A stretch of DNA of 33,695 nt from Candidatus Thalassarchaeaceae archaeon (GCA_030747675.1 JASLKH010000044.1:1-33695), one strand, 5' to 3'; positions 24,384 through 25,601 are shown, counted from the first letter of the stretch. The notes: generated by a model not told the origin, from the sequence alone. Made by a program: numbers and translations.

Positions 24384-25601
24384 TTAAATTAGGCTTTGAG
24401 GACATTTTGATTGTCGTGAACAATTTTTGCATTTGCCAGGTCTCTCATGATTCCTTTTCGCGCCTCCTTCAATCATTAATCGCTGTATTTCTTTTATATC
24501 ACGGGATAAATCATCCCGTGCTTCATCATCCCAGGGTATCGTGAAAAGAGAATCAGCCCCATATCGTAATATTCCATACTCAGGAGTTGTGTTTGTAGTT
24601 TCAGCAACAAGTTGGATATATGCAAGTACTTGCATTCTATGACTTTGATGAAATTTCTTTGGCACCTTCCCGGTTTTTTGCTCAACGGGAATGTATTGAT
24701 TATCGATTACTAATATTTGATCAGGCCTACCTCGTAAACCAGTTTCTTCATCAATCAAAAGAATAGCACTTTCTCCTGAATCATCACTATAAGCAATTTC
24801 TTCATCACCTCCGAGGCCAATTCTTTCTCGAGAAATTTGTGCAATATTCCCAAATGAGAGAGCACGATGCAATCTCCAAGAGCAGATGAGTAGCCAGATT
24901 AGAGAAAGTACAATCAACCCAAAAGCGAATAAATTTCTATCTTTAGCATAGTGAATTGCAATACCATGTAAAGCAATTGCAATTGAACCGAGGAGCATCA
25001 AGGCCTCTAACGAACCACCTTTGATGTAATCATCTTCGTCACTAATTGAAAAGGGCGATTCAATTTTTAATTCATTAAACTCTTTACCTTCAAAGTGAGG
25101 TGGTTGAGCAAGTCCAAATGGACGCCCTAACCACCTTCTCCAAGGAACCCAAATTAGGACAATTGCAGTAATTAACCACACTAGAGCTAGGCTGACTAGA
25201 TAACGACCCATATCTTCAACAAAATTTTCAGAGATTTGTCCCTGATCTACGAATAGAAATGCCGCAGAGTCAGCTGAAAGAGCTATGACTACTGTAAACC
25301 ACCAAGACCAAATTACTAACTCGTGATTTGCACGAGACTCTTTTGTCTTGAATTCAACCATATCTTTGTGAATACGTTCATGCTCTTTCATTCCTTGAAT
25401 TAGAGCATCGCCTTCTCCACTTACACCGGCCTTGGATAATTGCCACGAAACTGGGCAGTATGCATGACGCTCAAGATCTGACGCAGACACTGGCAGAGCC
25501 AAACCATTGAAATCACTCCAATATCCATCTTTACGGAGTTTTCCGGCCGAAATTGGATTATCAAAGTCCATGGCCTCATCAACAGTTTTCTGAGGGGCCA
25601 T
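24384..25601 (-). CDS. Solo Cas4-like PD-(D/E)XK Fe-S nuclease with four internal TM helices
   Basis: SASDLERHAYCP (Cys49), G-x-x-x-H helix, GRPDQ...PVEQKTG catalytic motifs, QVLAY (QxxxY) and C-terminal CKNCSRQSKC. Hydrophobic helices at about aa 95-118, 134-154, 197-219 and 224-243. Confidence 0.85.
   Translation of the reverse strand: MAPQKTVDEAMDFDNPISAGKLRKDGYWSDFNGLALPVSASDLERHAYCPVSWQLSKAGVSGEGDALIQGMKEHERIHKDMVEFKTKESRANHELVIWSWWFTVVIALSADSAAFLFVDQGQISENFVEDMGRYLVSLALVWLITAIVLIWVPWRRWLGRPFGLAQPPHFEGKEFNELKIESPFSISDEDDYIKGGSLEALMLLGSIAIALHGIAIHYAKDRNLFAFGLIVLSLIWLLICSWRLHRALSFGNIAQISRERIGLGGDEEIAYSDDSGESAILLIDEETGLRGRPDQILVIDNQYIPVEQKTGKVPKKFHQSHRMQVLAYIQLVAETTNTTPEYGILRYGADSLFTIPWDDEARDDLSRDIKEIQRLMIEGGAKRNHERPGKCKNCSRQSKCPQSLI

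Follow-up and report, generated by a model that had tools for sequence, protein, structure and literature searches.

The locus considered here raises the question of what a Cas4-type nuclease does when its domain appears to be interrupted by membrane helices. It lies in a stretch of 33,695 nucleotides from Candidatus Thalassarchaeaceae archaeon (GCA_030747675.1 JASLKH010000044.1:1-33695), hereafter the window, in which positions 24384 to 25601 of the minus strand hold an open reading frame (ORF) of 405 amino acids (aa). An initial annotation described this ORF as a solo Cas4-like iron-sulphur (Fe-S) nuclease with four membrane helices inserted between its first Fe-S cysteine and its catalytic core. 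Solo-Cas4 is the name given to archaeal Cas4-family genes that stand outside CRISPR-cas loci (Hudaiberdiev et al. 2017, PMC5704561); most archaea have such genes, and what they do has been a standing question since at least 2017. The analysis presented here indicates that the gene probably encodes an integral-membrane, cytoplasm-facing Cas4-family nuclease, in which, as the evidence strongly supports, a pair of helical hairpins interrupts one RecB-like PD-(D/E)xK domain with a four-cysteine [4Fe-4S] site behind its motif-I helix.

The interrupted Cas4 domain and its membrane insert

The gene and the parts of its product, where TM1 to TM4 are the predicted transmembrane helices, are located as follows.

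24384..25601, minus strand: coding sequence of the putative membrane-embedded Cas4-family protein, 405 aa plus stop, ATG start (ORF list and translation)
25317..25514, minus strand: N-terminal Cas4 piece, aa 30-95, with C49 and the motif-I helix G70xxxH74 running into TM1
25455-25457, minus strand: codon of C49, the first Fe-S cysteine
25143..25310, minus strand: first predicted membrane hairpin (hairpin 1), aa 98-153, made up of TM1 (about 98-118), a short loop on the outside and TM2 (about 134-152), from hydropathy peaks, model helices and column conservation; D111 and W142 Poseidoniales-invariant
25014..25142, minus strand: predicted cytoplasmic loop, aa 154-196, from column conservation and model confidence; its lysine and arginine enrichment fits an inside location
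24873..25013, minus strand: predicted membrane hairpin 2, aa 197-243 (TM3 about 198-218, TM4 about 224-243), from hydropathy, a profile match to hairpin 1 and column conservation; E199 and H212 Poseidoniales-invariant, W236 family-wide
24387..24872, minus strand: C-terminal core of Cas4, aa 244-405, in which a stalk helix (244-261) precedes the RecB-like part, from Pfam and NCBIfam matches, invariant columns and the fold match to Cas4 structures
24675-24722, minus strand: D294, E307 and K309 within the C-terminal core
24402-24431, minus strand: cysteine triad C391/C394/C400

All the Cas4/AddB hallmarks named in the initial annotation were found at the positions given there: AYCP at 47 (C49), GMKEH at 70 (H74), RPD at 292 (D294), EQK at 307 (E307, K309), QVLAY at 324 (Q324, Y328) and CKNC at 391, followed by C400. 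One N-terminal cysteine and the C-terminal CX2CX5C make up the four-cysteine pattern of a [4Fe-4S] Cas4, and a fifth cysteine, C240 in TM4, is variable, with T, S or A at this position in relatives. The two Pfam families expected from these motifs matched at aa 287-401 only, Cas_Cas4 with 36.1 bits (threshold 22.7) and PDDEXK_1 with 31.8 bits, and Pfam disclosed neither another domain nor a helicase fusion in the 405 aa. Since the Cas_Cas4 match covers positions 53-158 of a profile of 160, the domain's N-terminal third must sit apart from the rest in the sequence; this displacement by the insert is also the reason why the Cas4 equivalog TIGR00372, which aligned at aa 277-401 only, scored 63.4 bits and missed its cut-off of 65. 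In an alignment of 91 sequences that takes in distant 4-helix and 2-helix forms, Y48, C49, K309, Q324, C391, C394 and C400 are invariant, while G70, H74, D294, E307 and Y328 are retained in at least 90% of the relatives. The full set of eleven catalytic and Fe-S residues is retained by 87 of the 91, as had been expected of orthologues.

We used the same alignment to build an AlphaFold2 model (predicted local distance difference test score, pLDDT, 83; predicted template modelling score 0.73), in which the pLDDT is 90-96 for the N-terminal piece (aa 30-95) and falls below 50 for residues 163-191. Superposition with VIA-align placed model residues 32-405 on residues 5-200 of the Geobacter Cas4 domain in 7MI4 (Z 19.1, root-mean-square deviation 2.9 Å, 182 residues), and residues of about 30-405 were likewise spanned by the type I-C Cas4 8D3L (Z 18.6) and by SSO0001 4IC1 (Z 12.6); a Foldseek search carried out alongside gave a Cas4 match with E 4e-5. 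In a profile search, the N-terminal piece aligned weakly to the N-terminus of the solved Cas4 proteins 4R5Q and 8D3L. The model thus strongly supports that the two halves rebuild one Cas4 domain and, because both pieces enter a single rigid superposition, the four cysteines would be placed as in Cas4, which agrees with the convergence anticipated for them. One model helix extends from 65 to 119, the motif-I helix running straight on into TM1, and another from 222 to 261, by which TM4 returns to the core. On account of this continuity, the reassembled nuclease would hang on a two-helix stalk, with H74 about 24 residues (roughly 3 nm of helix) ahead of the interface tryptophans W98-W101.

The insert comprises about 150 residues with four strongly hydrophobic helices that separate the motif-I helix from the catalytic core, and its assignment to the membrane rests on hydropathy and the positive-inside rule. 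Kyte-Doolittle averages over 19 residues peak at aa 100-118 (1.72), 134-152 (2.54), 198-216 (1.99) and 224-242 (2.45). In the segments expected to be cytoplasmic, which are the stretch ahead of TM1, loop 2 (aa 154-196) and the stretch behind TM4, lysine plus arginine amounted to 9.3, vs 2.6 in the predicted outside loops 1 and 3 (aa 119-133 and 219-224), for 51 Poseidoniales sequences, and to 9.1 inside vs 1.6 outside for 25 distant 4-helix forms. An N-in/C-in topology, with both halves and all four Fe-S cysteines in the cytoplasm, is therefore strongly supported, in keeping with the earlier proposal that the cysteines lie on one side of the membrane. Fe-S cluster insertion occurs in the cytoplasm and requires this topology.

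The number of helices was predicted to be even, and this holds both for the four found here and across the family. A profile-free exhaustive search of 1.84 billion cluster representatives yielded 762 matches, 66 of which were complete (N-terminal Cys, G...H and C-terminal Cys triad). At first pass these displayed no helix in one case, two helices in 16, four in 32, eight in 13 and an odd number in four; with a 17-residue window the four odd counts became 2 or 8, so that all 65 helix-bearing representatives fit 2, 4 or 8 helices and none of the 66 is a 3-, 5- or 6-helix form. An 8-helix insert consists of two homologous halves (BLASTP E 2e-11), and hairpins 1 and 2 of the 4-helix form matched with an hhalign probability of 96% (E 2e-9), a value that calls for caution because membrane-helix composition bias inflates such scores. 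A W-L signature (W142, W236) marks the second helix of each hairpin. The best reading of the series 2, 4, 8, on these sequence comparisons, is that a single hairpin was duplicated serially (x1, x2, x4), and the duplication of whole hairpins would always bring the chain back to the same membrane side. The family would also be a clean case of topological constraint in domain insertion, where a cofactor-binding domain tolerates only even-numbered helix inserts.

Within Poseidoniales, D111 (TM1) and E199 and H212 (TM3) are invariant in 51 of 51 rows, D111 and H212 lying at equal depth from the cytoplasmic side, and the loop between the hairpins carries the motif PWRxWLGxPFGLAQPP (153-168), in which P153, W154, R155 and G159 are present in 51/51 rows and most other positions in 45-50/51; the residues that follow (169-192) are acidic, variable and disordered. 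The invariant buried D/E/H and the conserved loop suggest that in this order the insert does more than anchor the protein passively. Distant relatives keep neither these three residues nor the loop motif, and outside Poseidoniales the sequence of the insert is poorly conserved, the W-L signature excepted. Searched alone against Pfam, the insert returned only noise and no family.

Distribution, descent and genomic context

In a search of 5.8 billion proteins, full-length relatives (about 400-415 aa, 44-71% identity) numbered more than 1000. The named ones are annotated as 'Dna2/Cas4 domain-containing protein' of Poseidoniales, and public annotations of family members read simply Cas4 or Dna2/Cas4-domain protein. 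In species-representative genomes the N-terminal motif was present at 588 loci, and the best 80 of them, all from Poseidoniales, to which our synteny counts refer, have one syntenic 13-kb block in common. Because there are more than 1000 full-length homologues, all of which carry the insert, because the synteny is shared and because the halves rebuild one domain, an assembly chimera or artefact is strongly disfavoured and the observation is confirmed. None of the refuting outcomes listed in the initial annotation occurred.

The gene was found in 130 of 201 Poseidoniales genomes: in 28 of 99 Thalassarchaeaceae, including every sampled genome of six genera, and in 99/99 and 2/2 genomes of the other two families. 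Throughout the phylum Thermoplasmatota it is present in 284 of the 401 genomes sampled, with many families at or near 100%. Members differ in size and helix number, and include those of Aciduliprofundum boonei (ADD08116.1, 323 aa, 4 helices), of a Thermoplasmata archaeon on a 3.58-Mb contig (596 aa, 8 helices), of Poseidoniia metagenome-assembled genomes (MAGs; 280 aa, 2 helices) and, outside Thermoplasmatota, of Methanofollis formosanus (WP_220682637.1, 274 aa, 2 helices). From Methanobacteriota and Nanobdellota, a predicted-structure search added Cas4 clusters of 264-275 aa whose alignment covers model residues 19-403; the family probably reaches DPANN.

When 85 sequences were placed in a maximum-likelihood tree, the 10 named Thalassarchaeaceae rows all fell into one clade (33 rows, support 87) and the 17 named Poseidoniaceae rows all into another (43 rows, 99*); rpS2 adjoins the gene in 75 of the 80 loci. 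Tree and synteny together bear out the mainly vertical descent of a gene outside cas loci, which agrees with the definition of solo-Cas4 (Hudaiberdiev et al. 2017). Likewise, the reported lack of cas1, cas2 or an array in the window stands: there is no CRISPR-like repeat array in it, the genome to which it belongs (1.68 Mb, 78% complete) gave no Cas1 match and no Cas4 match other than the gene at 24384-25601, Cas1 was found in 1 of 121 Poseidoniales genomes, and no cas neighbours occurred at any locus examined. That the gene is chromosomal, single-copy, vertically inherited and CRISPR-independent is strongly supported, the vertical descent by conserved synteny, by the family-separating tree and by the family-wise presence across the phylum. 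A viral or mobile-element origin was rejected, as no relative was found in IMG/VR (searched with two peptide patterns) or among GenBank phages.

Two records stand apart. One Poseidoniaceae genome holds an intact copy plus a second one fragmented by three TGA stops (G062:C6:85804-86948), probably a decaying paralogue. A contig titled as a MAG of the alphaproteobacterium Salipiger bermudensis (L060, CAXQWT010000025.1) has the entire syntenic block of Poseidoniaceae, and the tree places its Cas4 gene inside that family. Mislabelling or contamination of the bin is the probable explanation.

As noted in the initial annotation, the gene is divergent from rpS2 (25738-26379, plus strand), from which it is separated by a short region:

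25602..25737, no strand assigned: divergent intergenic region of 136 bp common to the Cas4 gene and rpS2 (gene layout)

This region presumably contains the promoter or promoters. The other neighbours in the window are a dihydrouridine synthase (Dus), helix-turn-helix regulators, a 275-aa family-less protein and a 914-aa CARDB/zinc-ribbon protein, and no helicase gene adjoins the Cas4 gene there. Neighbourhoods vary by lineage and are mostly of a housekeeping type. Poseidoniales have rpS2 and Dus beside the gene, the 8-helix group has rpL15e, and A. boonei has pyruvate:ferredoxin oxidoreductase (POR) genes. In the 2-helix class-level relatives the gene comes after a small ORF and is followed by NTPase_1 and Trm1, and in Methanofollis an RNase H overlaps the gene start by 4 bp, with TrmO downstream.

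The 275-aa ORF (23554-24381, plus strand) is convergent with the Cas4 gene and 2 bp apart from it. It matches no Pfam family and has a hydrophobic stretch ending in a lipobox-like LPGC, so it may be a secreted lipoprotein; its annotated start overlaps the upstream gene, and the true start is therefore probably further downstream. It is kept at the same position in 54 of the 80 Poseidoniales loci. The 914-aa protein (20916-23660, plus strand) begins with a signal-like N-terminus, ends in a long acidic tail and contains CARDB, a single membrane helix and a double zinc ribbon; it is kept beside the locus in 72 of the 80. Elsewhere in the window, at 32967-33110, a tandem 12-nt repeat of about eight GAACCAGAGCCA-like copies lies inside the ORF 32411-33421 (plus strand) and probably encodes a Glu/Pro-rich low-complexity linker.

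Possible roles of the nuclease at the membrane

By analogy with soluble Cas4 and solo-Cas4, we infer that the protein would be an active, metal-dependent DNA nuclease, which membrane tethering would limit to DNA at, or arriving at, the inner membrane face. Processing of imported DNA, attack on injected viral DNA and membrane-localised nucleic acid turnover, all suggested in the initial annotation, are possible roles. Tentatively, we favour a non-essential housekeeping role in DNA-end or flap processing at the membrane, a repair or maintenance function of the solo-Cas4 type, because the gene is inherited vertically, is kept in a fixed housekeeping context and is single-copy. A role of this kind has been proposed for solo-Cas4 in general (PMC5704561). 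Several observations weigh against this explanation of the gene as a whole. The gene is present in 0 of 71 genomes of seven small-genome (1.2-1.7 Mb) Thalassarchaeaceae genera, many of them more than 90% complete, in which no other Cas4 was found either, and in only 3 of 48 genomes of one other family (f6), and five small families have lost it too; its absence from whole genera means that it is non-essential, which fits defence as well as repair. In a few lineages catalytic residues are lost, as in a 286-aa 2-helix form that carries H74K, D294A and E307D, and there, at least, the protein's activity must be something other than DNA cutting. Moreover, across the lineages examined there was no conserved operon partner that points to a pathway.

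Three leads to such a partner were followed. A TPD (PF14811) gene is the immediate same-strand upstream neighbour of the membrane Cas4 in at least five families (L091, L099, L101, L104, L107, L109 and L110), and the own genome carries TPD at G000:C80:30626-31009. This family of 'unknown function' is present in 226 of 401 Thermoplasmatota genomes, and its alignment depicts a PD-(D/E)xK signature (KTPD ... WIESK) behind an N-terminal helical region, that is, a second predicted nuclease. PF14811 may correspond to the human CDIN1/C15orf41 nuclease family. C15orf41 has euryarchaeal orthologues (PMC7092493). Neither single-sequence nor profile searches gave a credible PDB match for TPD, and no paper citing PF14811 was found. 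As an obligate partner TPD was rejected, its phyletic pattern being independent of the Cas4 gene: it is present in 36/36 Thalassarchaeaceae, genera without the Cas4 gene included, and in 48/48 genomes of f6, and in 0/14, 0/53 and 0/19 genomes of f5, f16 and f29, families that do have the Cas4 gene.

The second lead concerns pili. In one marine lineage (L086-L088) a 329-aa 4-helix form lies inside a pilus-type locus in the order prepilin peptidase, HerA/DUF87-like ATPase, 737-aa T2SSE ATPase, 664-aa protein, membrane Cas4 and second prepilin peptidase. The DUF87/HerA-FtsK-like ATPase (L086:2392-3648, minus strand) and the 664-aa protein without Pfam family (L086:5861-7852, plus strand) form a pair that recalls DNA-translocating machines. 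In a related genome (L111), T2SSE and two T2SSF genes are divergent from the membrane Cas4. Such observations would fit DNA uptake, in which the nuclease and a type IV pilus-like machine would act together, the former trimming imported DNA or degrading one strand on the cytoplasmic side. The pilus context keeps this reading alive, at a low probability. The link is anecdotal and was rejected as a general feature, since pilus genes do not adjoin the gene in L112, of the same genus as L111, in the other 30-odd lineages examined or in any of the 80 Poseidoniales loci. Neither ComEC nor DprA was found in the own genome (78% complete), and all five of its T2SSE matches lie off this contig. A link to the archaellum, the third lead, was also discarded: by genus within Thalassarchaeaceae, archaellin (PF01917) occurs in g9 and g13, which have no Cas4 gene, whereas g2, g3 and g10 have the Cas4 gene and no archaellin.

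Entry-site defence, with DNA uptake the main alternative to the favoured role, supposes that the tethered nuclease degrades the linear ends of incoming viral or plasmid DNA, as RecBCD/AddAB do in bacteria, and stands in for the CRISPR-Cas missing from these archaea. The membrane location, the lack of CRISPR (Cas1 being nearly absent from Poseidoniales) and the loss in streamlined genomes, a frequent fate of accessory genes, keep it plausible, even if we regard it as unlikely; foreign DNA does enter at the membrane. Relatives of Cas4 serve CRISPR adaptation, and ACE1 is reported to act in defence with Argonaute (PMC12094033); its entries PDB 9IAB/9IAC were matched by structure searches with our model. 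Against defence, the gene comes with no module telling self from non-self, no defence-island neighbours were present in 36 non-Poseidoniales loci and IMG/VR and GenBank phages gave no viral homologue. Whereas defence genes tend to be patchy and mobile, this one displays strict vertical inheritance, a single copy, a fixed housekeeping neighbourhood and near-universal presence in many families. Solo-cas4 genes in general lack an arms-race signature (PMC5704561). It is also conceivable, if improbable, that the insert merely keeps a promiscuous and potentially toxic nuclease off the nucleoid, or frees it under stress. The solo-Cas4 of M. mazei, reported to have been purified as a soluble oligomer and to be an Fe-S, Mn/Mg-dependent DNA nuclease, nicks and degrades supercoiled DNA and reduced growth when overexpressed (PMC12501428), and sequestration would also agree with the poor conservation of the insert beyond Poseidoniales. 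However, a single helix would be enough for a tether, yet the hairpins were duplicated up to eight helices, and the Poseidoniales-invariant residues and loop motif argue for a specific function or partner.

We give very little weight to the view that the ORF is a chimera or two-gene fusion, or that its hydrophobic stretch is a soluble helical bundle. The long helices of the model do match coiled coils and toxin pore helices too (Z 9-10), but the architecture recurs in more than 1000 proteins, in independent assemblies and in complete genomes of cultured organisms, and hydropathy of up to 2.5 over 19 residues, Trp-rich helix ends and the positive-inside charge bias all speak for a membrane segment. 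A long shot of another kind is that the hairpins of several subunits form a DNA-conducting pore and their Cas4 domains a ring directly below it, a toroid such as that of the SSO0001 oligomer, with the Poseidoniales-invariant buried D111, E199 and H212 lining or gating the pore. Channel and nuclease would then be one archaeal machine that imports and processes DNA, or destroys it at entry, self-contained in lineages without ComEC.

A large, vertically inherited branch of solo-Cas4 would consist of polytopic membrane proteins in Thermoplasmatota, in at least one Methanomicrobiales species and probably in DPANN, and this would give a concrete handle on the role of solo-Cas4, as the enzyme would have to work on DNA at the membrane's inner face. 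The abundant ocean archaea of the Poseidoniales would gain an unannotated nucleic-acid function, present in all sampled Poseidoniaceae and lost in streamlined Thalassarchaeaceae genera, and cultured carriers such as Aciduliprofundum boonei and Methanofollis formosanus make the question testable.

Relation to known nucleases

We found no description of a membrane-inserted Cas4 in the full-text literature (mostly non-subscription journals) or in the Cas4 phylogenomics paper (PMC5704561), the text of which does not contain 'transmembrane' and uses 'membrane' only in an unrelated gene name. The present family shares with solo-Cas4 its membership in PF01930/COG1468, its position outside cas loci and its vertical descent along archaeal lineages, and differs in that the proteins described so far are treated as soluble, whereas here 2, 4 or 8 predicted membrane helices lie inside the domain. 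Similarly, CRISPR-associated Cas4 (SSO0001 4IC1, Pcal_0546 4R5Q, type I-C 8D3L and Geobacter Cas4-Cas1 7MI4) agrees with it in fold (Z 12.6-19.1), in catalytic residues and in having one N-terminal plus three C-terminal cysteines; in contrast, the present gene lacks cas1, cas2 and an array, and carries a 150-aa membrane insert between the His helix and the Asp strand.

The iron-staple fold is also that of the Fe-S nuclease domains of AddB, AdnAB, Dna2 and Exonuclease 5 (Z 12-14.5) and, by analogy with them, the protein probably acts on DNA ends or flaps; unlike them, it has neither a helicase nor a soluble partner domain, being predicted to be membrane-embedded within only 405 aa. Membrane-fixed nucleases are known from DNA uptake, where pneumococcal EndA, a nuclease of unrelated fold, is held by a single anchor and works on the outer side of the membrane. 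The Fe-S nuclease described here would instead face the cytoplasm from an anchor that is polytopic and internal to the nuclease domain.

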